NCBI GenBank assembly: GCA_051313645.2
Contig: JBNRSN020000002.1
Coordinates: 344,286,001 to 344,350,000, forward strand
Direction of reading: 5' to 3'
From: Centroscyllium fabricii
Lineage: Eukaryota
DNA length: 64,000 nucleotides
In this document: positions 41,003 through 62,196 of the stretch, one piece after another
How the letters are laid out: every line of letters begins with the position of its first letter
Numbering within the stretch: position 1 is the first letter of the stretch
Made by a program: the position numbers and the translations under genes
The notes under the pieces: model-generated
Seen by the model: the letters and a program-made list of their open reading frames with translations, nothing else
Told to the model about the DNA's origin: nothing
Database searches by the model: none

Positions 41003-41169
41003 GATCTGCAAATGTTTCTACTTCAAATATTTATCCAATTGCCTTTTGAACGTTATTATTGAATTTGCTTTCACCACCCTGTTAGGCAGTGTATTCCAGG
41101 TCGTAACAATGCGCTGTGTAAAACACATTCTCCTCATCTCCCCTCTGGTGCTTTAGGTAATGTTACCCA

Positions 41170-44100
41170 TGTAGCGCTTGCAGGACCCAAGAACCACGCG
41201 GGAGCCAGAGAGACAGAAAAACACTTGTTTAATACATTACAGTAAGGAAGGAAGAGAGTGAAACATGAGGAGCGAGCTTATTTAAAAGGCCCGCTTTAGT
41301 GAACTCATCATGCCGAGGGATGGTGGTGACGTCATCACGTCACCCGATGGGCGGGGCTATGCCCCGCAGCTCTCGAGGCGGATTCGTCAGTCTTAGTGTG
41401 CCGCCACACAGCTCCCCCCCAGAATCTGTCTGAGAGGATAAAAGAGTCTATGTGTAGCGTTGTGGTGGCCGTAAGGCGCAGCTGGCATGTGTCGTGCGTT
41501 GCTCCTTGTTCTGCGGTGGAGTGTGGGCGGGTGTTGGTGCGGGAGGGCGTCCGCGTTGAGGTGGTTGGGCGGGGACTGTTGCGTCGCCCGCTATCACGTG
41601 TGCCGGTTTTAGCCGGTCTATAGAGACAGTTTCTGTTCTGTTGCCCAGCTGCAATTGGAAAGCTTTAGTTCCCGCCCGAAGCACTCTGTAGGAACCATCG
41701 TAGGTTGGTTGCAGTGGTGAGCGATGGGCGTCGTGCCGGACGAACACATACTTGCCGTTTTTAATGCCGTCCAGTACACGTGCCGCCGGCTCTCCGTGCC
41801 GGGCCACTGGTACGGGTTTGAATGCTCGTGCCGGGTTGGCAAAGTCTTTTAAGAACTGGTCGGCTGACCAGGGAGCGTTTGGCTCGGCGAGGAATTCGCC
41901 CGGCACTGTTAAAGTTTGGCCGTAGACGAGTTCTGCTGCCGAGGCGTTTAGGTCCTCTTTGACTGCCGAGCGCAGCCCGAGGAGTACCCATGGGAGACGG
42001 TCGGTCCATGACGCGTCTTTGAGGCTGGCCCGCAGGGATGCTTTCATAGAGCGGTGGAACCGTTCGCAGAGCCCGTTAGATTGTGGGTGGTATGCGGTGG
42101 TTCGATGTACGGTTACCCCGTGGTCGCAGGCGATGGCTGCCCATAGTGCTGACGTAAACTGGGGTCCTCTGTCCGACGTGATGTCGGTGGGCACGCCGAA
42201 ACGGGCGACCCAGGTGGCGATGAACGCCCTGGCCAAGTCCGTGGTGCCGGTGGCAGCGAGGGGGACTGCTTCTGGCCAGCGAGTGTTGCGGTCGACCATG
42301 GTCATGACGTCTGTGTGGCCCCGGGATGGTGGTAGTGGCCCGACGAGGTCGATGTGGACGTGGTCGAAGCGTCTGGCCGGCACTGTGAAGGTTTCCAGCG
42401 GTGCCCTGATGTGCTTGTGCACTTTGGAGCGCTGGCAGGCAATGCAGGAGTTGGTCCAGGCGCGGACGTCTTTGCGCAGGCTGCGCCACACGAAACGGGC
42501 CGAAATTAGCTTAATGGACGCGCGGGTGCCGGGGTGGGACAGGCCATGAGGGTCTCGAAGATGTGTCGCCTCCATGCGTGGGGGACGACGGGTCTGGGCT
42601 GCGGTAGGGAAACGTCGCAGCAGACGACTGTGGCAGCGGGGCCATGTGCGATTTTGGCCAGGTGTAGGCCAGGGAGGTTTGCTGCTGGGTCGAGCAGGTC
42701 TGGGTCGGCCAGCTGGTCTGCTGCCAGCTTGGCATAATCGACCGCCATTTGGGCGGCGTTAATTGCGGGGCGTGAGAGGCAGTCAGCAACCACGTTGTCG
42801 CGGCCGGAGATATGCTGAATGTCGGTAGTGAACTCCGACACAGCCGCGAGCTGGCGCTGCTGCCTGGCCGACCAGGGTTCGGCGACCTTAGCCATAGCGA
42901 AGGTGAGTGGCTTGTGGTCGACGAAGGCTGTGAAGGGACGGCCCTCGAAGAGGAAGCGAAAATGGCGCACTGCGAGGTAGAGAGCGAGGAGCTCCCTGTC
43001 GAAGGCGCTGTACTTGACCTCTGGGGGCCGAAGTTGCCGGCTGAAAAAGGCCAGGGGCTGCCAAGAGTTGCCGGTCCACTGTTCAAAGACGGCCCCGACA
43101 GCGTGGTCGGAGGTGTCAGTGGTGAGGGCCACTCTGGCGTTGGGCCTGGGGTGGGCTAGGAGGGTGGCATTGGCCAGGGCGGTTTTGGTTGCGGTGAAGG
43201 CGGTGGCGGCGTCGGCCGTCCACTCTACCGCAGTTTTGCCGGACTGCCCGCATGTGGCCTGGTATAGGGGGGCCATGAGAGCGGCTGCTCCTGGGATAAA
43301 GCGGTTATAAAAATTAACCATCCCCAGGAATTCCTGCAGCCCCTTAATGGAGTGCGGGCAGGGTAATTCCTGAACTGCCTGCACCTTGGAGGGCAGGGGT
43401 ATGGCCCCGGTTTGGGAAATGCGGTGGCCGAGGAAGTCTATGGTCTCGAGGCTGAATTTGCATTTTGAGGGGCTTAATATAAGGCCGTGTTCGACCAGGC
43501 GCTGGAACAGGGTCCTGAGGTGCAGGAGGTGTTCCTGGGGGGAGGTGCTGGCCACGAGGATGTCGTCCAAGTAGACGAAAATGAACTTCAAGTCCCGTAG
43601 GACCGAGTCCATGAGGCGCTGGAAGGCCTGGGCCGCGTTTTTAAGGCTGAAGGGCATCCTAAGGAACTCGAAGAGTCCGAAGGGGGTGATGACGGCAGTT
43701 TTGGCGATGTCCGCCGGGTGCACCGGAACCTGGTGGTAGCCACGCACCAGGTCGATCTTAGAGAAGATCGTGCAGCCTGCTAGTCTGGTGGAGAAATCCT
43801 GGATGTGGGGTACGGGGTACCTATCCGGGGTAGTGGCATTGTTTAGGTGGCGGTAGTCGCCGCAGGGGCGCCAACCCCCGCCCGGCTTGGGGGCGATGTG
43901 GAGGGGAGAGGCCCAGGGGCTGTTGGAGCGGCGGATTATGCCGAGTTGTTCCATGGTGCGGAACTCGGTGCGCGCGATCTCCAGTTTGGCCAGGTCCAGC
44001 CTGCGGGCGTGGGCATGTACAGGAGGGCCAGTGGTGGTAATAAAATGCTCTACCCCGTGTTTGGCCCGGCGGGCGGTGAACGTGGGGTTGGTAAGGGTGG

Positions 44101-45601
44101 GGAACTCTGCGAGGAGCGTGCCGTATGCGTCAGAGTTCCGGGAGCGGCATTGTGCCGCCGTGTGGGCCAGGAGTGCGGGCCCTGTGGAGCATGGGATGGT
44201 CGACATGTTATTGATGTCGACCAGGCGGCGCCGGGTCATGTCGACCAGCAGGCCGTGGGCGCAGAGAAAATCTGCCCCGAGGAGGGGTGAAGTGACCTGG
44301 GCTGTGACAAAGTCCCAGTGATACGTGTGGCCGGCGAGCTTAATAGTGAGCTTGCGGGTGCCGTACGTTTTTATATTGGAGCCGTTGGCCGCTGCGAGTG
44401 GCGGGCCCTGGGTGCCTTGTTTGGCTTCTGCTGGGGAGGCTGGCACGATGCTGTGCTGTGCGCCTGTGTCGCAGAGGAACCGGAGGCCTGTGCCGCTATC
44501 TGTGACAAAGAGCAGTGCTCCTGTGTGTCCTACAGACATAGTGGGGGCTGGTGTGGGCCGTGGCTTAAATGCGCAGGGCTGTACGCAGCGGTGCGCTTTA
44601 TTATCGAACCGCGTGTGGTAGTAGCACCAGCCGGTGCTTGATGGACGCGGTTGCCTGGGTGGGCGCGGGGCCCTGGGTTCAGGCGTTGGGTTGGACCTGG
44701 GGGGCGAGTGGTTGCGCTCAATGGATGCGGCATTAGGGTCGCACGTGGTGGAGCGGGTGCGCTCGGCCGCCATGAGCCTGTCGGCTTCCTCGGCTAGCTC
44801 GTCCCCATTCCGGTGGCAGAGGGCCGCCAGGGCCGGTCTGATGGAGCAGGGTAGTTTGAGGAGGAAAACGGTGCGGAACAGGGAGGCAGGATCTGCGGTG
44901 AGCGCTTGCATCTGACCCCAAAGGTCCGATGGGTCTGCGTCTCCAAGTTTGGGGAGGCTAAGGAGCTGACAGTCGCGCTCAAATTGGGAGGGGGTAAATC
45001 GTTTTAGCAGCGCGGCCTTAAGGAACTCATACCTGCCTGCTGTGGGCACACGCTGTAGCTTCGACCACATCCGATCGATCGTCGATTGCGGTTGGGCCGA
45101 AAAGACCAAGTTGTAGCGGTCATCCCCCTGGACGCCGTGTGTGCGGCAGCTGGTTTCGATGCACTTGAACCAGGCCGCTGGGCGCTGCTCCCAGAACTCC
45201 GGTAGTGTAAGTCTGTGTCCGAAGTTCTGGCCAAGTCCTTGGGTTCGAGAAGCTTGGTTCCTTGTAGTCATGTTTAACTTTTAAAGTGTCCTGAGGCTGC
45301 TTGGTCTTTGGTCCTGTAGCTGCTTTTTCTCCTTGGAAGTCGTTCCAAGTCGGGGTCACCAGTGTAGCGCTTGCAGGACCCAAGAACCACGCGGGAGCCA
45401 GAGAGACAGAAAAACACTTGTTTAATACATTACAGTAAGGAAGGAAGAGAGTGAAACACGAGGAGTGAGCTTATTTAAAAGGCCCGCTTTAGTGACCTCA
45501 TCACGCCGAGGGATGGTGGTGACGTCATCACGTCACCCGATGGGCGGGGCTATGCCCCGCAGCTCTCGAGGCGGATTCGTCAGTCTTAGTGTGCCGCCAC
45601 A
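41170..45601 (-). mobile_element. Gypsy LTR retrotransposon, CsRn1 clade (copy 2, nearly intact)
   Basis: 239-bp LTRs 41170-41408 and 45363-45601 (4 differences by eye), TG..CA ends, TSD CCCA, PBS TGGTGACCCCGAC (tRNA-Trp), PPT GGGGGGGAG, CHCC knuckle. Confidence 0.96.
41448..45271 (-). pseudogene. gag-pol of CsRn1 copy 2, one frameshift before the integrase HHCC
   Basis: 921-aa Gag-PR-RT(YLDD)-RH ORF; integrase continues in another frame from about 42549, where one added C restores ...ETL-HGLSHPG. Confidence 0.9.
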
Positions 45602-46791
45602 CCCATGAGAATATTGATGAGTTTTCTAACTGTCAACACATGTATGCATGTGTACACTTGTTAATCTCCCATGGTGTTGCACACCTGGAGTCAAGACCAA
45701 CTGCAGCCTTCAGGTGAAGCAGGGGTAGAAGAGGGTAATTAATTAGACCAGGGCTGATAGAAGATTGATCGAGAGCAGAAGGGGGCGTGAGGAGCAGAGA
45801 AGGTAAAGTGGGGTAGAGTCGGGCTGGATGCTCAACAACCAGCGGATCACCATGTTAAGGCAGGAGCTTGAGGCCTAGTGGGGATGGGGTATGGAGTGAC
45901 TTGAGTGGGATACCCATGCAGGCCATCTATTGTAGGGTCCCATGGGACACCTTGGCTCCAATAGTTATGGGGAGACGAGGACGGTTCAGGTGGGGCTGAA
46001 AACAACTGAAAAACCATGGCAAGGCTGAGGAGGCGGAGGTCCTGCCCAACTTAACAGCAGGATCTCACTAACATTTTTTAGCTTTGTTTCCCACCTGGCA
46101 GATGACCAAATGGACAACCTGATCGATGAGGGGGAGGTAACACCAGCGGTATGAGGCCTTAGCTAGAGACACTTGGGGGCGGTCCTCAACAATCGGGAGG
46201 AGGGAAAGAGAGGCCACAAATGAGCAGGGCAGGGGAAAGTCGGCAATCTGGTAGGCTGGGGGATGGGTGGTTAGCTGGTGATGGGGGCGTTGGGGGAGGT
46301 TGAAGGCTTCCTTGAGTGCCAGGAGCGCACTCCTTCCTCTTCTGGCCCACAAGGATTGCTGTAAAAGGCACTTACCCCGTGGAGCCAGCAGCTCCCGCCT
46401 CCCTTTCACTGCCGGATTTCCTCACCCCTGGGAAACCCGGACAGCAACTGTCAATTTTAAATCGGGCTCCCAATTGCACTCTGGGAGCCCAGTTTAAATA
46501 TGTTAATGAAGCCTCCAGGCCCTCCATGGCGGGACACGCGGACACCCCGATATCTGCCGGCAGGCATGTGCCTTCCCCATGTTTAACTCCTTAACTGATC
46601 CTCTCCTGCCCGTCATGAGAGGGTTAATAGTGAGGCTCTTGAGAGAGTTTAAGTAAAATAAGGCTGTTAGATGAGTTTGCAAAGAAAGTTGCTCCACAGT
46701 CACCCATGCCTGTATAATTGACATGTTTGCATAGGCAAAATTCATGTTAAATGTGAATATTAGGATGCATAAGGAAAAAAGTTGACACAAA

Positions 46792-47614: not shown

Positions 47615-47916
47615 TTGTTGGAGTTTGTCCTCGTCCGTGGTAGCCTTGGCTGCTGCCACATAGGCCTTTAGTAATCCAAACCAGTGCTTGAAGGTAGCTG
47701 GTGCCGCGTCATCCTGGGGGCTAATGTCCAGCTCCCTAGGTTTTAACGTGCTGCTCTCCATTTTAAGTTTATCAATTAAAATTGTAGCGTAGTCGCTAAC
47801 TCAATTAAAAGGCGACTCGTAAGTACCGAAATACAAGGCTTTTAATTGATAAAGAATGGAGCTAGTCTCCTTACCAGTTCACATACAAGAATGAAGGGGC
47901 TGGGTCTGGCCACACC

Positions 47917-49332
47917 TTATATCGGTGTCCCCACCTGGGGAGGAGTCGAGGGTGTGGCTGACCTGGCTCCCAGCAGTACAATGGCACTTATACAATGGTA
48001 GCCATATAAGGTAATGGTAACCATATAAGGGTTACCACATTCACCCCTTCTTAAAAACTTTGAGTCCGGGGGGGGTGAATGTACGGAACAGTTCATAATC
48101 AGTCTCTCCGGTGGTCGCGTTTGTCTTGCGGACCGCCGGGGTTCCGGTGTTGGTGGTGATGCCTCCATAGTCGAATAGCCCGCCTCCGTTGGTGCTGTAA
48201 GTTCTGGACGTGGTGGGTTCTGCTGGACCTCGTCGTCTGGTGCATCGGCGGGGAAACTCGGGGCCCATCTTGTGTCTGGTGGTAGGTTGACCTGCTGGCC
48301 AGCAGGAGGCGCTGTGGCGGTGTTTCCGGCCGGGGCCAGGTCCCTGATGGACACGGTGTCCTCACGCCCGTCTGGGAACTGCACAAAGGCATAGTGCGGG
48401 TTGGCGTGTAGGAGCTGTACCTTGTCCACCAGGGGGTCCGTCTTGTGGCACCGAACGTGCCGCTTAAGGAAAACCGGCCCCGGAGTCGTCAGCCATGGTG
48501 GGAGTGCCGTCCCCGAAGTTGACTTCCTGTTGAAGGAAAAAACAAGATCGTGCGGGGTGGCATTAGTAGCAGTACATAATAATGACCTGATAGAGTGCAG
48601 CGTGTCTGGGAGGACTGCCTGCCAATGGGACACCGAAAGGCCTCTGGACTTGAGAGCCAGGGTGACCGCCTTCCAAATGATCCCATTCTCCCTTTCTACC
48701 TGGCCGTTCCCCCGGGGGTTATAACTGGTCGTCCTGCTCGTGGCAACCCCTTTCTGGAGCAGAAACTGGCGCAGTTCATCGCTCATGAACGATGACCCCC
48801 GGTCGCTATGGATGTAGCTGGGGAGACCGAAGATGGCGAACAGCGTGGTGAAGTGTTTGATCACCGTTGCGCTCATCATATCTGGGCAGGGGAAGGCGAA
48901 GGGGAAGCGGGAGAACTCATCCACTACCGTGAGGAAGTATGAGTTGCGGTCGGTGGAGGGGAGGGGGCCTTTGAAGTCCACGCTGAGACGTTCAAAGGGG
49001 CGGGTGGCCTTAATGAGGTGCGCCGTGTCTGGCCGGAAAAAGTGGGGTTTGCACTCGGCGCAGACAGGGCAATCTCGGGTCATCTCCTTGATCTCCGTGA
49101 TGGAGTAGGGGAGGCTACGTGATTTGACGAAATGGGCTAATCTGGTGACACCCGGGTGACAGAGGCGGTCGTGGAGATCCTTCAGCCGGTCTAGCTGGGC
49201 ACTGGCGCACGTTCCCATGGACAGTGCGTCCGGGGGTTCGTTGAGTTTGCCTGGTCGGTAAAGAATGTCGTACTCGTAAGTCGAGAGTTCGATCCGCCAC
49301 CGCATGATCTTATCATTCTTGATTTTACCCCG
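47917..49332 (-). pseudogene. Family A middle unit, RNase H end plus integrase
   Basis: Continues exactly from the B insertion site. Confidence 0.92.
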
Positions 49333-49615
49333 TGTGGTAACCCATATTTGGGTATCCCTTATATGGGATACCATTGTTGTATACCTGTGTGCTGATATGT
49401 TGCTGGAGCCAGGTCAGCCACACCTCTGACTCCTCCCTCCAGGTGGAGCACCATAAAGGTATGAGCTGATCCTCCATTCATTCTTTTCCTGTATGAATCT
49501 ACCGAGGAGACACCTCTATTCTTTATTAATTAAAAGCCTAGTATTAACGGTAACTACGAGTCGTCTTTTAATTAAGTCTTCGACCTCGCTACAATTTTAA
49601 TTAATAAATTTTACA

Positions 49616-50941
49616 ATGGAGACCAAAGCAGTAAACCCTCGGATACTGGACATCAGCCCCCACGATGCTGCAGCACAGGTCAACTTCAGGCTCTGGCTCA
49701 AAGTTCTGGAGAACTACATGGAAGAAGCCAGGGCTGAAACAAGTGCGCAAAAACTTAAAGTACTGCTGGCACACATCTCCGGCAGGGTTTTCTCCCTCAT
49801 CGAAGAACACACATCGTACGAAGAATCGGTGGAGACCCTCAAGGAGCACTATGTGCGCCCTACTCACAAAGTCCACGGCCGCCACCTACTAGCGACCCGA
49901 CCTCAACAAACCGGTGAGTCAGACCACGAATTTGCGCAAGCACTCCGGAGCATGATAAAAGCCTGTGGCTGTACGGGCGGACTGAACCTGAGACAGGAGG
50001 AAAACCTCCTCCTCCGGGACGCGTTCGTTACAGGACTAAAAAACCCAGTAGCCCGTCAGAAACTACTGGAACAGGACAGCCTGACCTTTGAACAGGCAGT
50101 CAATCTAGCACAAATGGTGGACGGGGCCCACGCCAAAAACCAGACGTACGGCGGGGCCGGCTATCACGCTCCAAGCATTTGGGCTGCGACCCAGCAAGAG
50201 CCACGGATTGAGAGCCCCACCATGGCTGCGTCGGCCACCACGGACTCTAAGTATAAACACTGCTATTTTTGCGGAAAAGGCTTGCACCCCAGGGCAAAGT
50301 GCCCAGCCAAGACAGAGATCTGCGCCAAATGTTCTAAGAAGGGACACTTCGCCAAGGTCTGCAAAGCAACTCAAGCGGCTACAACACCACCGAGACGATA
50401 CAACAGTGCCTGTGAGACTTCCCAGGACAAACAGGTAGGCTGCAATAGCAGTTTTTTATTACTCCGCCAATCGCCCCCCCCCATGCAGCGGAGCCCACCC
50501 AAACGCGACCCTCTTACGTGGCCGGCTGCGCCCGAATTGCGGGCACCACGCTTCAACAGCGGGAGCTACGGGCCCTGCCAGCAACGCTCCCTAAAGCAGT
50601 GCCTCCAGAGCCTCCACAACGGGTCACTGAACGGGCACCACAATGGGAATCGCGGGTTGAAACGGACTTTCGAGCGGCGGCTGTTGAAACTGACTTTCGA
50701 GCTGGGGCTGCTGAAACTGACTATAAATCGCCAGCTGCTGCACTCACAGACCCAGCACAGCGGGTTGCCCTGCGTGAATCGCGGGCTGAAACTGACTATA
50801 GAGCTCTTGCTGAAACTGACCAGCACAGATCGCGTGCTGAACTCTCTGACTATAAATCGCGAGTTGAAACTGACTATAGAGCTGTTGCTGAAACTGACTA
50901 TAGAGCTGCTGATAAAACTAAATTGTATGAATCCCAACTAA
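49616..50941 (+). CDS. Family B Gag
   Basis: Homologous to A Gag; double CCHC knuckle. Confidence 0.88.
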   Translation: METKAVNPRILDISPHDAAAQVNFRLWLKVLENYMEEARAETSAQKLKVLLAHISGRVFSLIEEHTSYEESVETLKEHYVRPTHKVHGRHLLATRPQQTGESDHEFAQALRSMIKACGCTGGLNLRQEENLLLRDAFVTGLKNPVARQKLLEQDSLTFEQAVNLAQMVDGAHAKNQTYGGAGYHAPSIWAATQQEPRIESPTMAASATTDSKYKHCYFCGKGLHPRAKCPAKTEICAKCSKKGHFAKVCKATQAATTPPRRYNSACETSQDKQVGCNSSFLLLRQSPPPMQRSPPKRDPLTWPAAPELRAPRFNSGSYGPCQQRSLKQCLQSLHNGSLNGHHNGNRGLKRTFERRLLKLTFELGLLKLTINRQLLHSQTQHSGLPCVNRGLKLTIELLLKLTSTDRVLNSLTINRELKLTIELLLKLTIELLIKLNCMNPN

Positions 50942-53900
50942 CCTCATTCTCTCTTCCAGGTCCTCGGATGTGCCAGCAAGCCAGTACTGTAATAAATTGT
51001 CTTCCCCCAGGTCCCGCATGGTGCAAGCCAGGGGGGCCATCTTGTCCTCCCCCAGGCCCCCCCTCGTGGGGGCGGCCATTTTGTCAGGTCCACTCCATGT
51101 GCTTTCCAGGGGGGTGGCCATTTTGTGAGGGGCAGCCATTTTGTGAAGGGCGGCCATTTTGTGCGGCGACCGGCCCTACAGTTAGCCAGGACAAGCCCCA
51201 CACCCTATCCCACTCCATGAGGCCAATCAAGATCAACGACCACATGGTCAACTGCCTTTTTGACACGGGCAGCACTGAGAGTTTTATCCACCCTAATACA
51301 GTGCGGCGCTTCGGACTGCAGGTCCTACCCACTAACTACCAAGTTTCATTAGCTTCACAGTCCCACACCGAGGACATCACCGGCTACTGCTCCGTCACGC
51401 TCACCGTCCAGGGACGCGTGTACCGTAATTTTAAATTGTATACCTTCCAACAGTTGTGTGCCCCAGCCTTACTAGGTCTGGACTTCCAGTGCCACTTCAG
51501 GAGTGTGACAATGGAGTTTGGCGGTACTTTACCCCCCCTCACCCTCAGTAGCCGGGACAATCTCCTCCCAAAGCGGACCCCAGCCTGCGGCCTCTCCACC
51601 CTGAGAATCGATCCCCCCTCGCTGTTCGCCAACCTCGATCCGAAGTGCAAACCTATCGCCACTAAGAGTCGGCGGTATAGCGAGGGGGACCGCACGTTTA
51701 TCAGGTCGGAGGTCGGGCGGCTGCTAAAGGAGGGGATTATTGAGGCCAGCACCAGCCCCTGGCGGGCCCAAGTTGTAGTCGTTAAGACTGGTGAGAAACA
51801 CCGGATGGTTATCGATTACAGCCAGACCATTAACCGCTACACCGGGCTCGACGCCTACCCCCTTCCCCGCATCTCAGAAATGGTCAATCAGATCGCCCAG
51901 TACAAGGTGTTCTCCACGATCGACCTTAAATCGGCGTATCACCAGCTCCCGATTCGGAAAGCCGACCGCCCCTACACCGCCTTCGAGGCGAACGGCCGGC
52001 TCTACCACTTCCTCCGGGTCCCCTTTGGCGTCACCAACGGAGTGTCAGTGTTCCAGCGGGAGATGGACCGTATGGTTGATCACAATGACTTGCAGGCCAC
52101 CTTCCCTTACCTGGACAATGTGACCATCTGCGGCCACGGCCAGCAGGACCACGATGCCAACCTGGCCAAATTTCTTGACACGGCGGCTAAGCTGGACCTT
52201 ACGTATAACAAAGACAAATGTGTCTTTAATACAACCCGGCTCGCCATCCTCGGATACGTGGTGGAGAATGGGGTCCTCGGCCCCGACCCACAGCGTATAC
52301 GACCCCTTCAGGAACTGCCCCTACCTCACAACCCCAAAGCCTTGAGGAGATCTCTAGGATTGTTCTCCTACTATGCACAATGGGTCCCGCAGTTCGCAGA
52401 CAAGGCTAGACCACTCCTCAAGGCTGCCGTCTTCCCTCTTTCTATAGAAGCTCAAACGGCATTCGAAAAGATAAAAGGAGATATCATCAAGGCGACCATG
52501 CACGCTGTTGATGAATCCATCCCTTTCCAGGTGGAGAGTGACGCTTCGGACTTTGCCCTTGCTGCCACCCTGAATCAGGCAGGCAGGCCCGTAGCGTTTT
52601 TCTCCCGCACCTTACAGGGACCCGAAACTCGCCACTCAGCAGTGGAAAAGGAGGCCCAGGCCATTGTGGAGGCCGTGCGCTACTGGCGTCATTACCTGGC
52701 CGGTAAGCGTTTTACCCTGCTCACCGACCAACGGTCGGTGGCGTTTATGTTTAACAATAAACTACGGGGTAAAATCAAGAATGACAAGATCATGCGGTGG
52801 CGGATCGAACTCTCGACTTACGAGTATGACATTCTTTACCGACCAGGTAAACTCAATGAACCACCGGACGCACTGTCCAGGGGAACGTGCGCCAGTGCCC
52901 AGCTAGACCGGCTGAAGGACCTCCACGACCGCCTCTGCCACCCGGGTGTCACCAGACTCGCCCATTTTGTCAAAGCTAATAATCTCCCCTACTCCATCAC
53001 GGAGATCAAGGCTATGACCCGAGATTGCCCTGTCTGCGCTGAGTGCAAACCCCACTTTTTCCGGCCAGACACGGCGCACCTCATTAAGGCCACTCGCCCC
53101 TTTGAACGCCTCAGCGTAGACTTCAAAGGCCCCCTTCCCTCCACCGACCGCAACTCATACTTCCTCACGGTAGTGGACGAGTTCTCCCGTTTCCCCTTCG
53201 CCTTCCCCTGCCCAGACATGACGAGCGCAACGGTGATCAAACACTTCACCACGCTGTTCGCCATCTTTGGTTTCCCCAGCTACATCCATAGCGACCGGGG
53301 GTCATCGTTCATGAGCGATGAACTGCGTCAGTTCCTGCTCCAGAAAGGGGTTGCCACGAGCAGAACGACCAGTTACAACCCCCGGGGGAACGGCCAGGTA
53401 GAAAGGGAGAATGGGATTATCTGGAAGGCGGTCACCCTGGCCCTCAAGTCCAGAGGCCTTCCAGTGTCCCACTGGCAGGCAGTCCTCCCAGGCGCGCTGC
53501 ACTCTATTAGGTCGCTATTATGTACAGCTACTAATGCCACCCCGCACGACCTTGTCTTCTCTTTCAGCAGGAGATCATCTTCGGGGACGGCGCTCCCACC
53601 ATGGCTGACGACCCCTGGCCCGGTGTTTCTTAGAAGGCACGTTCGGGGCCACAAGACGGACCCTCTGGTGGACAGGGTACAGCTCCTACACGCCAACCCA
53701 CAATATGCTTTTGTGCAGTTCCCAGACGGGCGTGAGGACACCGTGTCCATCAGGGACCTGGCCCCGGCCGGCAACACCGCCACAGCTCCTCCTGCTGGCC
53801 AGCAGGTCGACCTACCATCAACCACAAGACGGTCCCCGAGTTCCCCCGCAGATGCACAAGACGAGGTTCAGCAGAGTCACGAAACTACAGCACCGACGGA

Positions 53901-54150
53901 GACAGACTATTCGGCCATGGGGCAATCACCGCCAACATCGGAACCCCGGCGGTCGGCAAGACAAACGCGGCCGCCGGAGAGACTCATTATGAACTGTTCA
54001 ATTTATCCACCCCCCCCCCCTGGACTCAAAGTTTTCAACAAGGCATTCACCCCGACCCCGGACTCAAAGTTTTTAACAAGGGGTGAATGTGGTAACCCAT
54101 ATTTGGGTATCCCTTATATGGGATACCATTGTTGTATACCTGTGTGCTGA
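50452..54150 (+). CDS. Family B Pol (PR-RT-RH-IN), -1 frame relative to gag; expression route uncertain
   Basis: Frame open from 50449; LFDTGS, YLDN, DASD, HHCC and DDE motifs all present. Confidence 0.88.
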   Translation, partial: FFITPPIAPPHAAEPTQTRPSYVAGCARIAGTTLQQRELRALPATLPKAVPPEPPQRVTERAPQWESRVETDFRAAAVETDFRAGAAETDYKSPAAALTDPAQRVALRESRAETDYRALAETDQHRSRAELSDYKSRVETDYRAVAETDYRAADKTKLYESQLTSFSLPGPRMCQQASTVINCLPPGPAWCKPGGPSCPPPGPPSWGRPFCQVHSMCFPGGWPFCEGQPFCEGRPFCAATGPTVSQDKPHTLSHSMRPIKINDHMVNCLFDTGSTESFIHPNTVRRFGLQVLPTNYQVSLASQSHTEDITGYCSVTLTVQGRVYRNFKLYTFQQLCAPALLGLDFQCHFRSVTMEFGGTLPPLTLSSRDNLLPKRTPACGLSTLRIDPPSLFANLDPKCKPIATKSRRYSEGDRTFIRSEVGRLLKEGIIEASTSPWRAQVVVVKTGEKHRMVIDYSQTINRYTGLDAYPLPRISEMVNQIAQYKVFSTIDLKSAYHQLPIRKADRPYTAFEANGRLYHFLRVPFGVTNGVSVFQREMDRMVDHNDLQATFPYLDNVTICGHGQQDHDANLAKFLDTAAKLDLTYNKDKCVFNTTRLAILGYVVENGVLGPDPQRIRPLQELPLPHNPKALRRSLGLFSYYAQWVPQFADKARPLLKAAVFPLSIEAQTAFEKIKGDIIKATMHAVDESIPFQVESDASDFALAATLNQAGRPVAFFSRTLQGPETRHSAVEKEAQAIVEAVRYWRHYLAGKRFTLLTDQRSVAFMFNNKLRGKIKNDKIMRWRIELSTYEYDILYRPGKLNEPPDALSRGTCASAQLDRLKDLHDRLCHPGVTRLAHFVKANNLPYSITEIKAMTRDCPVCAECKPHFFRPDTAHLIKATRPFERLSVDFKGPLPSTDRNSYFLTVVDEFSRFPFAFPCPDMTSATVIKHFTTLFAIFGFPSYIHSDRGSSFMSDELRQFLLQKGVATSRTTSYNPRGNGQVERENGIIWKAVTLALKSRGLPVSHWQAVLPGALHSIRSLLCTATNATPHDLVFSFSRRSSSGTALPPWLTTPGPVFLRRHVRGHKTDPLVDRVQLLHANPQYAFVQFPDGREDTVSIRDLAPAGNTATAPPAGQQVDLPSTTRRSPSSPADAQDEVQQSHETTAPTETDYSAMGQSPPTSEPRRSARQTRPPERLIMNCSIYPPPPPGLKVFNKAFTPTPDSKFLTRGECGNPYLGIPYMGYHCCIPVC

Positions 54151-54353
54151 TATGTTGCTGGAGCCAGGTCAGCCACACCTCTGACTCCTCCCTCCAGGTG
54201 GAGCACCATAAAGGTATGAGCTGATCCTCCATTCATTCTTTTCCTGTATGAATCTACCGAGGAGACACCTCTATTCTTTATTAATTAAAAGCCTAGTATT
54301 AACGGTAACTACGAGTCGTCTTTTAATTAAGTCTTCGACCTCGCTACACCCCG

Positions 54354-57350
54354 TAGTTTATTATTAAACATAAACGCCACCGACCGTTGGTCGGTGAGCA
54401 GGGTAAAACGCTTACCGGCCAGGTAATGACGCCAGTAGCGCACGGCCTCCACGATGGCCTGGGCCTCCTTTTCCACTGCAGAGTGGTGAGTCTCGGGTCC
54501 CTGTAAGGTGCGGGAGAAAAACGCTACGGGCCTGCCTGCCTGATTCAGGGTGGCAGCAAGAGCAAAGTCCGAAGCGTCACTCTCCACCTGGAAAGGGATG
54601 GATTCATCAACAGCGAGCATGGTCGCCTTGATGATATCTTCCTTTATCTTTTCGAATGCCTTTTGGGCTTCTATAGAAAGGGGGAAGAGTGCAGCCTTGA
54701 GGAGTGGTCTAGCCTTATCTGCGAACTGTGGGACCCATTGTGCATAGTAGGAGAAAAATCCTAGGCATCTCCTCAAGGCTTTGGGGTTGTGAGGTAAGGG
54801 CAGTTCTAGCAGGGGTCGCATACGCTGTGGGTCGGGGCCGAGGAGCCCGTTCTCCACCACGTATCCGAGGATGGCGAGCCGGGTTGTATAAAAGACACAC
54901 TTGTCTTTGTTATACGTAAGGTCCAGCTTAGCCGCCGTGGCGAGGAATTTGGCCAGATTGGCATCGTGGTCCTGCTGGTCGTGGCCGCAGATGGTCACGT
55001 TGTCCAGGTAGGGGAAGGTGGCCTGCAAGTCATTCTGGTCAACCATACGGTCCATCTCCCACTGGAACACGGACACTCCGTTGGTCACGCCAAAGGGGAC
55101 CCGGAGAAAGTGGTAGAGCCGACCGTTCGCCTCGAAGGCGGTGTAGGGGCGGTCGGCTTTCCGAATCGGGAGCTGATGATACGCCGACTTAAGGTCGATT
55201 GTGGAGAACACCTTGTACTGGGCGATCTGGTTGACCATTTCTGAGATGCGGGGAAGGGGGTAGGCGTCGAGCCCGGTGTAGCGGTTGATAGTCTGGCTAT
55301 AGTCGATCACTAGCCGTTGTTTCTCACCAGACTTCACCACTACAACTTGGGCGCGCCAGGGGCTGGTGCTGGCTTCAATAATCCCCTCCTTCAGCATCCG
55401 TCCGACCTCCGACCTGATAAACGTGCGATCCCCCTCACTGTACCGCCGACTCTTAGTGGCGATTGGTTTGCACTTTGGGTCGAGGTTGGCGAACAGCGAG
55501 GGGGGGTCGATTTTCAGGGTGGAGAGTCCGCAGGCCGGGGTCCGCTTCGGGGGGAGATTGTCCCGGCTACTGAGGGTGAGGGGGGGTAAAGTCCCGCCGA
55601 ACTCCATGGTCACGCTCTTGAAGTGGCACTGGAAATCCAAGCCTAGTAAGGCTGGGGCACACAACTTTTTGAGGGTATAGAATTTAAAATTGCGGTACAC
55701 GCGTCCCTGGACGGTGAGCGTGACGGAGCAGTAGCCGGTGACGTCCGCGGTGTGGGACTGTGAAGCTAGGGACACTTGGTAGTTGGTGGGCAGGACCTGC
55801 AGCCCGAAACGCCGCACTGTATCAGGGTGAATGAAACTCTCGGTACTGCCCGTGTCGAGGAGGCAGTCGACGGTATGGTTATTAATCCTAATACGTATTA
55901 ATGAATTAGACAAGTGATGGGGCTTGCTTTGGCTGACTGTAGTTGTAGCAGCCCCTGCTGATGGGGACTGTGCACAAAATGGCGCCGCCCATGGTTCGCA
56001 CATGGAGGGGCCCTGGATACAAAATGGTGCCGCCCTTGGCTCGCACATGGAGGGTCCCTGGGTACAAAATAGCGCCGCCCTTGACTCGCACATGGAGGGG
56101 CCCCGGCTACAAAATGGCGCCACCCTTGGCTCGCACATGGAGGAGCCCTGGGCGCAAGATGGCGTCTTCCGTGGTTCGCACATGGAGGGGCCTGGGTTGC
56201 GGGGTAGCGTTACTGCGGGGCCCTGATGCGTTGGCGGTGCCCGTGATTCGCACGCAGCGAACCGCGGTGAACGCGCTGGCGGTGCCCGTGATTCGCACAC
56301 AGTGAACCGCGGTGAACGCGCTGGCGGTGCCCATGATTCGCACGCAGCGAGCTGCGGTGAACGCGCTGGCGGCGCCCGTGATTCGCACGCAGCGAACCGC
56401 GGTGGTCGGGTTGGCGGTGCCCGTGATTCGCACGCAGCCGGCCGCGTTGTAAGCTCGCGTTTGGCCGGTTGCCGCGGCATCGAGGTGGGGGGAGGGGGCG
56501 CTTGCCGTCGCTGAATAGCACTGCAAATGCAGCTTACCTGGTGATGGTTGCTCTCACAGACTGCACTGTTGTACCTTTTAGATGCTGTGGCTGGAGTGGC
56601 TCTGCAGGCTTTGGCGAAGTGTCCCTTCTTGGAGCATTTTTCGCAGGTCGCCGTCTTGGCTGGGCATTTTGCTCTGGGGTGCAATCCTTGGCCGCAGAAA
56701 TAGCAGTGTTTGAGCTTAGTGTCCGTGGTGGCCGTCGCGGCCATCGTGGGGCTCTCAATCCGTGACGCCTGTTGTGGTGCGGCCCATATGTTGTAGACTT
56801 GATGGCTGGTACCACCGTACGTCTGCGATTTATTCCGGGCCCCCTCCACCGATTTGGCTAACGTGGTTGCCTCCTCAAGGGTCAGATTGTCCTTTTCCAG
56901 TAGCCTCTGACGGGCTACTGCACATCTTAGTCCTGAGACATAGGCGTCCCGGAGGAGGATGTTTTCTTCCTGTGCCTTGGTCAATCCACCCTTGCAGCCA
57001 CAGGCCCGTATCATGCCCCGGAGCGCTTGCTCAAACTGGTCGTTTGACTCACCGGGTAGTTGAGATCGGGTCGCTAGTAGGTGGCGGGCGTAGACAGAGT
57101 GGACCGGGCGCTCATAGTACTGTTTGAGGGACGTCACCATTTCCTCGTAGGTTGTAAGGTCCTCGACAAGGGTGAAAACCCTGCTGGAGACCCTGGATAG
57201 CAGGAGTTGGAGTTTGTCCTCGTCCGTGGTAGCCTTGGCTGCTGCCATATAGGCCTTTAGTAATCCAAACCAGTGCTTGAAGGTAGCTGGTGCCGCGTCA
57301 TCCTGGGGGCTAATGTCCAGCTCCCTAGGTTTTAACGTGCTGCTCTCCAT
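54354..57350 (-). pseudogene. Family A middle unit gag-pol, 5' part (3' part at 47917-49332)
   Basis: Near-identical to 57506-61918; interrupted in RNase H at NKLR|GKIK by the family B insertion. Confidence 0.93.
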
Positions 57351-57505
57351 TTTAAGTTTATCAATTAAAATTGTAGCGTAGTCGCTAACTCAATTAAAAG
57401 GCGACTTGTAAGTACCGAAATACAAGGCTTTTAATTGATAAAGAATGGAGCTAGTCTCCTTACCAGTTCACATACAAGAATAAAGGGGCTGGGTCTGGCC
57501 ACACC

Positions 57506-60500
57506 TTATATCGGTGTCCCCACCTGGGGAGGAGTCGAGGGTGTGGCTGACCTGGCTCCCAGCAGTACAATGGCACTTATACAATGGTAGCCATATAAGG
57601 TAATGGTAACCATATAAGGGTTACCACATTCACCCCTTCTTAAAAACTTTGAGTCCGGGGGGGGTGAATGTACGGAACAGTTCATAATCAGTCTCTCCGC
57701 GGGTCGCGTTTGTCTTGCGGACCGCCGGGGTTCCGGTGTTGGTGGTGATGCCTCCATAGTCGAATAGCCCATCTCCGTTGGTGCTGTAAGTTCTGGACGT
57801 GGTGGGTTCTGCTGGACCTCGTCGTCTGGTGCATCGGCGGGGAAACTCGGGGCCCATCTTGTGTCTGGTGGTAGGTTGACCTGCTGGCCAGCAGGAGGCG
57901 CTGTGGCGGTGTTTCCGGCCGGGGCCAGGTCCCTGATGGACACGGTGTCCTCACGCCCGTCTGGGAACTGCACAAAGGCATAATGCGGGTTGGCGTGTAG
58001 GAGCTGTACCTTGTCCACCAGGGGGTCCGTCTTGTGGCACCGAACGTGCCGCTTAAGGAAAACCGGCCCTGGAGTCGTCAGCCATGGTGGGAGTGCCGTC
58101 CCCGAAGTTGACTTCCTGTTGAAGGAAAAAACAAGATCGTGCGGGGTGGCATTAGTAGCAGTACATAATAATGACCTGATAGAGTGCAGCGCGTCTGGGA
58201 GGACTGCCTGCCAATGGGACACTGAAAGGCCTCTGGACTTGAGAGCCAGGGTGACCGCCTTCCAAATGATACCATTCTCCCTTTCTACTTGGCCGTTCCC
58301 CCGGGGGTTATAACTGGTCGTCCTGCTCGTGGCAACCCCTTTCTGGAGCAGAAACTGGCGCAGTTCATCGCTCATGAACGATGACCCCCGGTCGCTATGG
58401 ATGTAGCTGGGGAGACCGAAGATGGCGAACAGCGTGGTGAAGTGTTTGATCACCGTTGCGCTCATCATATCTGGGCAGGGGAAGGCGAAGGGGAAGCGGG
58501 AGAACTCATCCACTACCGTGAGGAAGTATGAGTTGCGGTCGGTGGAGGGGAGGGGGCCTTTGAAGTCCACGCTGAGACGTTCAAAGGGGCGGGTGGCCTT
58601 AATGAGGTGCGCCGTGTCTGGCCGGAAAAAGTGGGGTTTGCACTCGGCGCAGACAGGGCAATCTCGGGTCATCTCCTTGATCTCCGTGATGGAGTAGGGG
58701 AGGCTACGTGATTTGACGAAATGGGCTAATCTGGTGACACCCGGGTGACAGAGGCGGTCGTGGAGATCCTTCAGCCGGTCTAGCTGGGCACTGGCGCACG
58801 TTCCCCTGGACAGTGCGTCCGGGGGTTCGTTGAGTTTGCCTGGTCGGTAAAGAATGTCGTACTCGTAAGTCGAGAGTTCGATCCGCCACCGCGTGATCTT
58901 ATCATTCTTGATTTTACCCCGTAGTTTATTATTAAACATAAACGCCACCGACCGTTGGTCGGTGAGCAGGGTAAAACGCTTACCGGCCAGGTAATGACGC
59001 CAGTAGCGCACGGCCTCCACGATGGCCTGGGCCTCCTTTTCCACTGCAGAGTGGCGAGTCTCGGGTCCCTGTAAGGTGCGGGAGAAAAACGCTACGGGCC
59101 TGCCTGCCTGATTCAGGGTGGCAGCAAGAGCAAAGTCCGAAGCGTCACTCTCCACCTGGAAAGGGATGGATTCATCAACAGCGAGCATGGTCGCCTTGAT
59201 GATATCTTCCTTTATCTTTTCGAATGCCTTTTGGGCTTCTATAGAAAGGGGGAAGAGTGCAGCCTTGAGGAGTGGTCTAGCCTTATCTGCGAACTGTGGG
59301 ACCCATTGTGCATAGTAGGAGAAAAATCCTAGGCATCTCCTCAAGGCTTTGGGGTTGTGAGGTAAGGGCAGTTCTAGCAGGGGTCGCATACGCTGTGGGT
59401 CGGGGCCGAGGAGCCCGTTCTCCACCACGTATCCGAGGATGGCGAGCCGGGTTGTATAAAAGACACACTTGTCTTTGTTATACGTAAGGTCCAGCTTAGC
59501 CGCCGTGGCGAGGAATTTGGCCAGATTGGCATCGTGGTCCTGCTGGTCGTGGCCGCAGATGGTCACGTTGTCCAGGTAGGGGAAGGTGGCCTGCAAGTCA
59601 TTCTGGTCAACCATACGGTCCATCTCCCACTGGAACACGGACACTCCGTTGGTCACGCCAAAGGGGACCCGGAGAAAGTGGTAGAGCCGACCGTTCGCCT
59701 CGAAGGCGGTGTAGGGGCGGTCGGCTTTCCGAATCGGGAGCTGATGATACGCCGACTTAAGGTCGATTGTGGAGAACACCTTGTACTGGGCGATCTGGTT
59801 GACCATTTCTGAGATGCGGGGAAGGGGGTAGGCGTCGAGCCCGGTGTAGCGGTTGATAGTCTGGCTATAGTGGATCACTAGCCATTGTTTCTCACCAGAC
59901 TTCACCACTACAACTTGGGCGCGCCAGGGGCTGGTGCTGGCTTCAATAATCCCCTCCTTCAGCATCCGTCCGACCTCCGACCTGATAAACGTGCGATCCC
60001 CCTCACTGTACCGCCGACTCTTAGTGGCGATTGGTTTGCACTTTGGGTCGAGGTTGGCGAACAGCGAGGGGGGGTCGATTTTCAGGGTGGAGAGTCCGCA
60101 GGCCGGGGTCCGCTTCGGGGGGAGATTGTCCCGGCTACTGAGGGTGAGGGGGGGTAAAGTCCCGCCGAACTCCATGGTCACGCTCTTGAAGTGGCACTGG
60201 AAATCCAAGCCTAGTAAGGCTGGGGCACACAACTTTTTGAGGGTATAGAATTTAAAATTGCGGTACACGCGTCCCTGGACGGTGAGCGTGACGGAGCAGT
60301 AGCCGGTGACGTCCGCGGTGTGGGACTGTGAAGCTAGGGACACTTGGTAGTTGGTGGGCAGGACCTGCAGCCCGAAACGCCGCACTGTATCAGGGTGAAT
60401 GAAACTCTCGGTACTGCCCGTGTCGAGGAGGCAGTCGACGGTATGGTTATTAATCCTAATACGTATTAATGAATTAGACAAGTGATGGGGCTTGCTTTGG

Positions 60501-61918
60501 CTGACTGTAGTTGTAGCAGCCCCTGCTGATGGGGACTGTGCACAAAATGGCGCCGCCCATGGTTCGCACATGGAGGGGCCCTGGATACAAAATGGTGCCG
60601 CCCTTGGCTCGCACATGGAGGGTCCCTGGGTACAAAATGGCGCCGCCCTTGACTCGCACATGGAGGGGCCCCGGGTACAAAATGGCGCCGCCCTTGGCTC
60701 GCACATGGAGGAGCCCTGGGCGCAAGATGGCGTCTTCCGTGGTTCGCATATGGAGGGGCCTGGGTTGCGGGGTAGCGTTACTGCGGGGCCCTGATGCATT
60801 GGCGGTGCCCGTGATTCGCACGCAGCGAACCGCGGTGAACGCGCTGGCGGTGCCCGTGATTCGCACACAGTGAACCGCGGTGAACGCGCTGGCGGTGCCC
60901 GTGATTCGCACGCAGTGAGCCGCGGTGAACGCGCTGGCGGCGCCCGTGATTCGCACGCAGCGAACCGCGGTGGTCGGGTTGGCGGTGCCCGTGATTCGCA
61001 CGCAGCCGGCCGCGTTGTAAGCTCGCGTTTGGCCGGTTGCCGCTGCATCGAGGTGGGGGGAGGGGGCGCTTGCCGTCGCTGAATAGCACTGCAAATGCAG
61101 CTTACCTGGTGATGGTTGCTCTCACAGACTGCACTGTTGTACCTTTTAGATGCTGTGGCTGGAGTGGCTCTGCAGGCTTTGGCGAAGTGTCCCTTCTTGG
61201 AGCATTTTTCGCAGGTCGCCGTCTTGGCTGGGCATTTTGCTCTGGGGTGCAATCCTTGGCCGCAGAAATAGCAGTGTTTGAGCTTAGTGTCCGTGGTGGC
61301 CGTCGCGGCCATCGTGGGGCTCTCAATCCATGACGCCTGTTGTTGTGCGGCCCATATGTTGTAGACTTGATGGCTGGTACCACCGTACGTCTGCGATTTA
61401 TTCCGGGTCCCCTCCACCGATTTGGCTAACGTGGTTGCCTCCTCAAGGGTCAGATTGTCCTTTTCCAGTAGCCTCTGACGGGCTACTGCACATCTTAGTC
61501 CTGAGACATAGGCGTCCCGGAGGAGGATGTTTTCTTCCTGTGCCTTGGTCAATCCACCCTTGCAGCCACAGGCCCGTATCATGCCCCGGAGCGCTTGCTC
61601 AAACTGGTCGTTTGACTCACCGTGTAGTTGAGATCGGGTCGCTAGTAGGTGGCGGGCGTAGACAGAGTGGACCGGGCGCTCATAGTACTGTTTGAGGGAC
61701 GTCACCGTTTCCTCGTAGGTTGTAAGGTCCTCGACAAGGGTGAAAACCCTGCTGGAGACCCTGGATAGCAGGAGTTGGAGTTTGTCCTCGTCCGTGGTAG
61801 CCTTGGCTGCTGCCATATAGGCCTTTAGTAATCCAAACCAGTGCTTGAATGTAGCTGGTGCCGCGTCATCCTGGGGGCTAATGTCCAGCTCCCTAGGTTT
61901 TAACGTGCTGCTCTCCAT
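57506..61918 (-). CDS. Family A Gag-Pol polyprotein, single 1470-aa ORF
   Basis: Double CCHC knuckle (CYFC..HPRAKCPAK..CEKC..GHFAKAC), protease LLDTGS, RT IDLKSAY/YLDN, RNase H DASD/EKE/TDQ/DALSR, integrase HHCC plus DDE. Confidence 0.93.
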   Translation of the reverse strand: MESSTLKPRELDISPQDDAAPATFKHWFGLLKAYMAAAKATTDEDKLQLLLSRVSSRVFTLVEDLTTYEETVTSLKQYYERPVHSVYARHLLATRSQLHGESNDQFEQALRGMIRACGCKGGLTKAQEENILLRDAYVSGLRCAVARQRLLEKDNLTLEEATTLAKSVEGTRNKSQTYGGTSHQVYNIWAAQQQASWIESPTMAATATTDTKLKHCYFCGQGLHPRAKCPAKTATCEKCSKKGHFAKACRATPATASKRYNSAVCESNHHQVSCICSAIQRRQAPPPPTSMQRQPAKRELTTRPAACESRAPPTRPPRFAACESRAPPARSPRLTACESRAPPARSPRFTVCESRAPPARSPRFAACESRAPPMHQGPAVTLPRNPGPSICEPRKTPSCAQGSSMCEPRAAPFCTRGPSMCESRAAPFCTQGPSMCEPRAAPFCIQGPSMCEPWAAPFCAQSPSAGAATTTVSQSKPHHLSNSLIRIRINNHTVDCLLDTGSTESFIHPDTVRRFGLQVLPTNYQVSLASQSHTADVTGYCSVTLTVQGRVYRNFKFYTLKKLCAPALLGLDFQCHFKSVTMEFGGTLPPLTLSSRDNLPPKRTPACGLSTLKIDPPSLFANLDPKCKPIATKSRRYSEGDRTFIRSEVGRMLKEGIIEASTSPWRAQVVVVKSGEKQWLVIHYSQTINRYTGLDAYPLPRISEMVNQIAQYKVFSTIDLKSAYHQLPIRKADRPYTAFEANGRLYHFLRVPFGVTNGVSVFQWEMDRMVDQNDLQATFPYLDNVTICGHDQQDHDANLAKFLATAAKLDLTYNKDKCVFYTTRLAILGYVVENGLLGPDPQRMRPLLELPLPHNPKALRRCLGFFSYYAQWVPQFADKARPLLKAALFPLSIEAQKAFEKIKEDIIKATMLAVDESIPFQVESDASDFALAATLNQAGRPVAFFSRTLQGPETRHSAVEKEAQAIVEAVRYWRHYLAGKRFTLLTDQRSVAFMFNNKLRGKIKNDKITRWRIELSTYEYDILYRPGKLNEPPDALSRGTCASAQLDRLKDLHDRLCHPGVTRLAHFVKSRSLPYSITEIKEMTRDCPVCAECKPHFFRPDTAHLIKATRPFERLSVDFKGPLPSTDRNSYFLTVVDEFSRFPFAFPCPDMMSATVIKHFTTLFAIFGLPSYIHSDRGSSFMSDELRQFLLQKGVATSRTTSYNPRGNGQVERENGIIWKAVTLALKSRGLSVSHWQAVLPDALHSIRSLLCTATNATPHDLVFSFNRKSTSGTALPPWLTTPGPVFLKRHVRCHKTDPLVDKVQLLHANPHYAFVQFPDGREDTVSIRDLAPAGNTATAPPAGQQVNLPPDTRWAPSFPADAPDDEVQQNPPRPELTAPTEMGYSTMEASPPTPEPRRSARQTRPAERLIMNCSVHSPPPDSKFLRRGECGNPYMVTITLYGYHCISAIVLLGARSATPSTPPQVGTPI

Positions 61919-62196
61919 TTTAAGTTTATCAATTAAAATTGTAGCGTAGTCGCTAACTCAATTAAAAGGCGACTCGTAAGTACCGAAATACAAGGCTTTT
62001 AATTGATAAAGAATGGAGCTAGTCTCCTTACCAGTTCACATACAAGAATGAAGGGGCTGGGTCTGGCCACACCTTATATCGGTGTCCCCACCTGGGGAGG
62101 AGTCGAGGGTGTGGCTGACCTGGCTCCCAGCAGTACAATGGCACTTATACAATGGTAGCCATATAAGGTAATGGTAACCATATAAGGGTTACCACA

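Follow-up and report, generated by a model that had tools for sequence, protein, structure and literature searches.

Self-priming of reverse transcription is treated, in the accessible portion of the source, as a feature of the Tf1/sushi chromoviruses, in which the primer lies at the 5' end of the RNA (PMC10085805). In Tf1 that primer comprises the first 11 bases, with RNase H cutting between bases 11 and 12 (PMC7175516), and the cDNA often retains a single-stranded copy of the primer site (PMC11042837), as set out in the available parts of these papers. The self-priming cases in the available text of three further sources are fungal or chromoviral only (PMC6934838, PMC3601003, PMC5443660), the available text of two others covers tRNA-primed groups (PMC12471100, PMC13524379), and self-priming terms do not occur in PMC2774666. 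The literature covered here, a scope outside which lie Repbase, GyDB, subscription papers and the primary papers on Tf1 and Cigr-1, yielded no description of the arrangement presented below.

The elements under study lie in a 64,000-nucleotide stretch of shark DNA, the whole of which was analysed and is called the window, and belong to three related Ty3/gypsy families, A, B and C. It had been proposed that these families dispense with a tRNA primer and prime instead through a 14-bp pairing between the start of their internal region and a segment of their own LTR, here called arm X. Sequence comparison indicates that the clade containing A, B and C does, in all likelihood, self-prime through arm X.

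Organization of the elements

Element B is complete, occupying 49333-54348 on the plus strand (5016 bp) between copies of a 5-bp target site duplication (TSD), CCCCG, at 49328-49332 and 54349-54353. Its 261-bp LTRs, of the TG...CA form, are 100% identical (49333-49593 and 54088-54348), and the second is preceded by a polypurine tract (PPT) at 54078-54087. A gag ORF with two CCHC knuckles (49616-50941) is overlapped in a different frame by a pol frame encoding PR-RT-RH-IN (50449-54150) that lacks a chromodomain; an env ORF was looked for in both A and B and not found, pol extending into the 3' LTR with no further ORF. Arm X occupies 49522-49535 of the 5' LTR (13-nt core, 49523-49535) and includes the poly(A) hexamer ATTAAA, and a copy lies at 54277-54290 in the 3' LTR. 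After a spacer of one base, the A at 49594, comes the primer-binding site TTTTAATTAATAAA (49595-49608, core 49595-49607), which is the exact reverse complement of arm X, as had been proposed; such a 14-mer complement is expected in the B LTR 4.6e-6 times by chance under a mononucleotide model. The gag ATG follows the site by 7 nt. B is very young, all 40 scored copies, from 1573 candidates, being 100% identical over 221 bp (window positions 49480-49700).

Family A forms a minus-strand tandem array (47617-62196) of three LTRs with an identical primer site after each, and the insertion of B splits the A unit preceding the third LTR. In the first LTR (61940-62196) arm X lies at 62010-61997, its complement at 61938-61925 and the ATG, 6 nt later, at 61918. 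This pairing, the second of those originally put forward, recurs at the two internal LTRs, namely the shared middle one (57628-57372, within 57357-57628; arm 57442-57429, primer site of the next unit 57370-57357) and the third (48039-47783, within 47617-48039; arm 47853-47840, site 47781-47768), where a truncated gag start follows. In place of the separate gag and pol frames of B, A has a single gag-pol ORF of 1470 aa (57506-61918, minus strand) with RT and RNase H acidic motifs and with CCHC knuckles of the form C-X2-C-X4-H-X4-C at residues 216 and 236, a doubling that we take to be a trait of the Mag lineage. The LTRs of A and B are 74% identical and their helices differ by one compensated pair, the compensatory change pointed out in the original proposal. 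Between the two families gag is about 75% identical and pol about 92%, a mosaic pattern to which that of Tf1 and Tf2 is comparable in the accessible text of PMC10085805. Tandem repeats of 45 nt occur in the A gag-protease linker (55915-56539 and 60483-61107), and shorter repeats at the gag/pol overlap of B (50648-50922).

Family C is represented in the window by a minus-strand 3' LTR (63324-63603) in which arm X is at 63396-63384. The corresponding 5' LTR and primer site are located some 4 kb past the window end (locus L031), and in this DNA, fetched from outside the window, the sequence forecast from its arm, TTTTAATCACTTA, was found one base past the LTR; a first search pattern for family C, which assumed the TACA ending of the A and B LTRs, had given 0 matches in the genome.

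Neither A nor B has a TGG site ahead of its ATG, in keeping with the initial observation. As a control, two other Ty3/gypsy elements in the window, at 8815-13275 (plus) and 41162-45602 (minus), do have TGG primer sites, which read TGGTGACCCC and are presumably of the tRNA-Trp/CsRN1 type. These two elements are 68% alike over 2 kb, the minus-strand one carries a DUF7041 domain, and fragments of a non-LTR element with endonuclease and RT matches lie at 18186-20667 (minus). No tRNA genes were found within the 64-kb window, and an Rfam scan of 49300-49700 gave no match.

Conservation and covariation of the pairing

A junction pattern that fixed the final five arm bases with GCC, the terminus of the LTR and the five bases opening the site had 229,351 matches genome-wide against 65 for a reversed control. 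The density is about one junction per 31 kb, and if all belonged to full elements of about 4.8 kb they would account for no more than roughly 1.1 Gb of the 7.2-Gb genome. The 75 junctions analysed were taken from the first 70 of 100 places among the matches listed, and 74 were left after removal of L157, a read-through fossil treated below. Helix positions 1-5 are set by the search pattern and hence uninformative for conservation; at positions 6-13 Watson-Crick pairs were present in 91-99% of the 75 junctions, at position 14 in 45%, and beyond it in 8-48%. The helix of 14 bp originally proposed is thus exact in B, but the core conserved across the clade is 13 bp. Over positions 6-14, 614 of 675 cells in the 75 junctions are Watson-Crick paired, compared with 418 +/- 10 on permutation (maximum 453 in 2000). 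Pairing is perfect over 13 nt in 58 of the 74 junctions, through 24 different sequences, and each of the seven wobble cells among the 74 is a G in the arm opposite a T in the site. As the site starts TTT and has no TGG, no CCA-ended tRNA can prime from it, and since the 24 perfect 13-mers each match their own LTR, no single host RNA can serve them all; the host-RNA match that could have overturned the proposal is thereby ruled out.

Relatives were also sought in metagenome contigs, where 66 loci were recovered, 24 of them with a gag start and enough upstream DNA, giving 19 distinct arm-site pairs. Eleven of these 19 non-shark pairs are perfect and 16 pair at 12-13 of 13 positions, the weakest loci being L059 and L084, with 10 paired, and L092, with 8. 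At positions 6-13, 141 of 152 cells are paired against 89 +/- 6 permuted, a score inflated by the choice of the best-scoring register. Several of these loci have LTR pairs and 5-bp duplications, and exactly one base separates the site from the LTR at 22 of the 24 loci outside sharks and at every shark junction. The covariation anticipated among relatives is therefore present both within the same genome and in the metagenome contigs, the pairing being kept with different letters.

Two features absent from the original prediction accompany the pairing. The first is a hairpin, GCC...GGT, which in B (49536-49551) stands directly 3' of the inferred cut discussed below; GCC..GGY occurs within 6-14 nt in 57 of 74 junctions, the GCC being preset by the pattern, and RCC-led hairpins are visible at non-shark loci. 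The second is another complement of arm X within U5 (49565-49575 in B), for which the mean best run in the 74 junctions is 7.0 nt against 5.9 +/- 0.13 permuted. A further hairpin 5' of arm X, reading GGAG..CTCC, GGTG..CACC or GACC..GGTC according to family, ends 3-4 nt before the arm and is a candidate stop signal for plus-strand copying.

A genome-wide test at helix position 11 gave 12 double-change matches, 4-5 of them real elements, where about 3 were expected, and has low power. There was no excess of double changes at this position, where single changes numbered 702 and 1009, nor any excess of G.U over A.C (702 vs 1009), so that the copying of new mutations from arm to site lacks support from this low-power test. 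Single-copy variants altered in both arms (L166, L168, L185) were considered as proof of such copying and rejected, since the L168 variant recurs in a subfamily and position 11 shows no excess. The pairing itself is real and conserved, and it is very probably a device for self-priming.

Start site and leader fold

In B a TATA-like box (49452-49457) stands 28 nt 5' of the A of an initiator, TCATTC (49478-49483), and we infer that this A, at 49480, is +1; fossil read-throughs in sister families stop at the equivalent A. The corresponding elements in the first LTR of A are TATAA at 62078-62074 and an initiator at 62051-62046, with +1 at 62049. Within the set search interval, 63 of 74 junctions have a CA(T/G)T resembling an initiator at 51-53 nt ahead of the 3' end of the arm and 6 lack one altogether, and a TATA-like word lies 28-31 nt before the initiator, again within a set interval, in 63 of the 68 junctions that have one. 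The putative capped self-primer, from +1 to the end of arm X, would thus measure 56 nt in B (49480-49535) and 51-53 nt in most families. Contigs from four runs, two of them presumed to be of RNA, showed no transcript start, end or poly(A) junction and weigh neither way.

The predicted leader fold consists of a central helix with two hairpins inside its loop, and gives the arm-site helix pair probabilities of 0.72-1.0 in both A and B. If the primer site is absent, the arm is predicted to pair with its U5 complement instead, forming an alternative hairpin. Folding z-scores for the whole leader are modest (B -1.3, A -2.6). A helix covering the gag AUG is also predicted in A and B, for which an exact-run permutation gave a weak result (5.2 vs 4.95 nt).

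Read-through fossils

One aberrant copy, L157, consists of a full LTR and the spacer A followed by an inverted copy of the LTR that runs from the arm to the first LTR base, all flanked by a 5-bp duplication. Genome-wide, the hairpin preceding the arm follows in inverted form at 588 junctions and an inverted U3 motif at 322, with a control of 0 in each case. The first 100 of the 588 were examined, two of which lacked an initiator call, and the search pattern hides ends upstream of about -22. Of these fossils 52 are short, stopping within -22 to +12 of the initiator A; they form 42 clusters, or 41 independent ends once L234, a long palindrome, is dropped. Fifteen of the 41 fall at 0/+1 (p 3e-9 if ends were distributed evenly across 35 positions), or 13 of 39 (p 1e-7) after L263 is merged and the doubtful L292 dropped, and these end points support the start at the TATA-like box and TCATTC that had been postulated. 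Reverse transcriptase adds C opposite the G of a cap. A C comes directly after the end in 12 of the 19 fossils that stop at 0 to +4, compared with 3 of the 20 that stop earlier (Fisher p 0.0025), as expected if RT copies a cap.

The 46 long fossils among the 100 run into U3 and bear no sign of a jump at +1. Nineteen of them are palindromic LTRs flanked by 5-bp TSDs, of which 18 are exact and one has a mismatch; another 7 continue through an inverted PPT, 13 have lost part of the left arm and 7 are of other kinds. Five of the PPT type, followed at length, extend about 20-140 nt further into the 3' end of the element. Palindrome arms are 94-100% identical, and family A itself has left fossils (L251, L250/L208, L209). 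Poly(A)-like fossils were found at two sites only, 11 and 17 nt past the hexamer.

Several side products deserve description. Palindromic LTR fossils of about 500 bp, with two U3 ends and 5-bp TSDs (L198, L200, L204, L206, L207, L208, and further L211, L214, L222, L225 and others), could pass for MITEs or foldback DNA transposons. Ten read-throughs from several subfamilies rejoin gag at one codon (L239, L248, L258, L263, L264, L269, L272, L299, L305, L309), by either a recurrent microhomology jump or the continued spread of one derivative. L230 and L232 have two outer LTRs and an interior that starts with an inverted 3' end, the TSD of L230 being near-matching. Others have a complete inverted U3 end and a truncated left arm, often abutting pol (L199, L203/L244, L210, L215, L218, L220, L226, L227), and arose either by a deletion that followed insertion or as another product of replication.

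The simplest reading of the fossils is that plus-strand strong-stop synthesis overran the capped 5' RNA piece and then jumped, by homology to the 3' R of a second RNA in the palindromes and the PPT type, and elsewhere for the +1 ends. They appear to constitute new evidence, in that they record the primer from end to end. Read in this way, they indicate that RT copied arm X to the capped 5' end straight after U5, the covalent join of RNA to minus strand lying beyond what they record.

A model for self-priming and its alternatives

Transcription would start at the TATA-initiator pair about 40 nt before arm X, as the fossils support, and arm X would then occupy nucleotides ~40-53 of the RNA, holding the AWUAAA hexamer and engaging in a 13-bp pairing with the site one base past the LTR. 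A cut at the 3' end of arm X, ahead of the RCC hairpin, would release the primer, which is likely to be a capped 5' RNA fragment of ~53 nt ending just after the poly(A) signal. Tf1 suggests by analogy that the likeliest cutter is the RNase H of the element itself, an attribution with about an even chance of being right. From this primer RT would copy the spacer and U5 and jump to the short portion of 3' R that separates X from the poly(A) site. In tRNA-primed elements, plus-strand strong-stop synthesis restores the primer site by copying the primer; in the clade described here it would normally copy ~13 nt of the primer, regenerating the site and keeping the arms matched, with a stop signal or a second trim as alternative sources of the 13-nt limit. 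The RT would rarely run to the primer cap, often adding C there and jumping elsewhere, and the fossils would be the integrated products of such events. By burying the hexamer, the helix probably inactivates the poly(A) signal of the 5' LTR alone. The distance from the RNase H cut to the polymerase site is given as 11-12 nt for Ty3 RT and 10-14 nt for CaMV RT in the available text of PMC11363490, and by analogy this distance, which is close to the length of the 13-bp helix, may explain the figure of 13.

Several points weigh against the model. The first jump would be left with only about 10-17 nt of homology, as judged from the two poly(A)-like fossils, 46 of the 100 read-throughs examined cross +1 without a sign of a jump, and the inferred cut is ~53 nt from the RNA 5' end compared with 11 nt in Tf1. 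The last discrepancy makes the Tf1 analogy for the cutter imperfect.

An unlikely alternative is that the copy of arm X in the 3' LTR is the self-primer, the RNA 3' end being cut after X and the minus strand reaching the cap before it jumps. The 3' LTR was evidently a template in the 7 of 46 long read-throughs that enter the inverted PPT, 5 of which continue ~20-140 nt, and this route would give the first jump about 40 nt of homology and agree with the clean crossing of +1 by most long fossils. It gives no reason, however, for the pile-up at the initiator with an added C; it needs an extra switch onto a 5' arm that is predicted to be paired, and in the 3' LTR the arm must leave the hexamer exposed. 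That this explanation keeps some weight is due to the fossils leaving the covalent link unproven.

Considerably less probable is a purely regulatory helix, one that masks the 5' poly(A) signal or serves as a translation or packaging switch while priming falls to a protein, to an RNA of the host or to some different site. Switches of this kind are known in retroviral leaders, and the hexamer within the arm, the alternative partner in U5 and the predicted helix over the gag AUG would all suit one. Such a role would not account for a partner that starts one base past the LTR (in 22 of 24 non-shark and all shark cases) and stops sharply at 13, for the lack of TGG ahead of the ATG and of an Rfam match in 49300-49700, or for 24 sequences that match their own LTRs, nor would it give DNA that continues from the site into the sequence upstream of the arm as far as the cap. 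Least credible of all, to the point of being barely tenable, is that the fossils are DNA-level rearrangements, arising by plus-strand or chromosomal fold-back at the inverted repeat followed by deletion and so uninformative on the primer: arms 94-100% identical and a left arm partly lost in 13 of 46, which indicates that later deletion is common, would be compatible with this, but the precise TG...CA ends and 5-bp TSDs of 19 of 46 indicate integrase substrates, a plus-strand fold-back can neither pass the PPT nor stop at +1 with an extra C, and fold-back itself needs a plus strand already ending in the arm complement.

Priming by the capped 5' fragment carries several implications. The model predicts a defined small capped RNA and a cut site. 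Silencing by 3' tRNA fragments should not reach elements of this type, and annotation tools that require a tRNA site should miss them. Read-through fossils offer a general readout of primer and start site, independent of the bench, for any high-copy LTR element. At its widest, and here our confidence falls a little short of even, the interpretation is that of a second, independently evolved form of self-priming that would define a whole animal clade of Ty3/gypsy elements: the poly(A) signal would serve as the 3' end of a capped ~53-nt primer, made by an internal cut that, unlike the one in Tf1, cannot be measured from the RNA 5' end and so would need a recognition rule of its own, and one helix would silence 5' polyadenylation, license reverse transcription and free the element from control by tRNA and tRNA fragments, and would have contributed to its rise to over 200,000 junctions in a single genome.

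Classification and comparison with known systems

With PR-RT-RH-IN between TG...CA LTRs, a PPT and a TSD, the elements are of the Ty3/gypsy type, and Pfam searches found protease, RT, RNase H and integrase domains and no chromodomain or env. The best PDB match of the RT is Ty3 RT (E 1e-47). The closest RT relatives, at 74-82% identity, are from sharks and rays, and protein relatives more broadly come from rays and sharks, a tunicate, an aphid, a psyllid, a ctenophore, a nematode and an anemone; a search of viral contigs found none, and the ESM Atlas returned unnamed or generic Gag clusters only. A chromodomain is absent from the window proteins P0002 and P0003 and from 5 of 5 distant relatives, and present in the control, L331. 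In a quick RT/RH tree of 42 rows, in which long branches meet and which included no named references such as Tf1 or sushi-ichi, the 31 rows of the clade form one branch (SH-aLRT 100), apart from 5 SH3/chromodomain-type and 3 TGG-type rows of the same genome. Domain search, RT tree and Gag motifs accordingly agree with the earlier view of a non-chromoviral lineage with a double CCHC. The SH3/chromodomain-type elements of the same genome number 31,090 candidates, loci L329-L336 among them; the Tf1 layout, with the complement directly at the initiator, is present in 3 of 5 examined.

Cigr-1, found in Ciona and also in molluscs and annelids, is a possible identity of the clade. Its LTRs are short, its one ORF measures about 1210 aa and its Gag is of the echinoderm type, and relatives with a single ORF of ~1200 aa, tunicate matches included, occur here as well. 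Cigr elements exist outside tunicates according to the accessible parts of two papers (PMC6238403, PMC8556966), in which the terms primer and PBS have 0 occurrences, and the motifs of the clade are absent from the searchable supplements of PMC6238403.

With tRNA-primed Ty3/gypsy elements and retroviruses, such as Ty3 and the TGG elements of the window, the clade has in common PR-RT-RH-IN, TG...CA LTRs, the PPT and a 5-bp TSD, but it lacks TGG, and its site changes with the LTR instead of staying fixed. The fungal copia element GalEa and biv-TRIM likewise have no tRNA site, and a hairpin has been proposed in its stead (available text of PMC6934838); there, however, the inverted repeats lie inside the internal domain, whereas here one arm is in the LTR, with the geometry of a primer. 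The nearest parallel is with Tf1, Tf2, Tj1 and the Tf1/sushi group, which, in the available portions of the sources, also have no tRNA site and pair a segment of their own R beside the 5' LTR, need a cut to make the 3' end and copy the primer into the end of the cDNA (PMC7175516, PMC10085805, PMC11042837), and which form tandem arrays sharing one LTR, as family A does (PMC11042837). In the accessible literature self-priming is tied to those chromoviruses, and the present elements extend it to a separate, widespread animal clade with a different geometry. In Tf1/sushi elements the primer is the first ~9-15 nt, whereas here the 3' end of the arm is 51-53 nt past the initiator in 63 of 74 junctions; the present clade has a one-base spacer, an internal pairing arm and predicted flanking hairpins instead of a demonstrated three-duplex 'pretzel', and it has no chromodomain and an RT clade separate from the chromodomain-type elements of its own genome. 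The clade works like Tf1 self-priming but falls outside the Tf1/sushi group.
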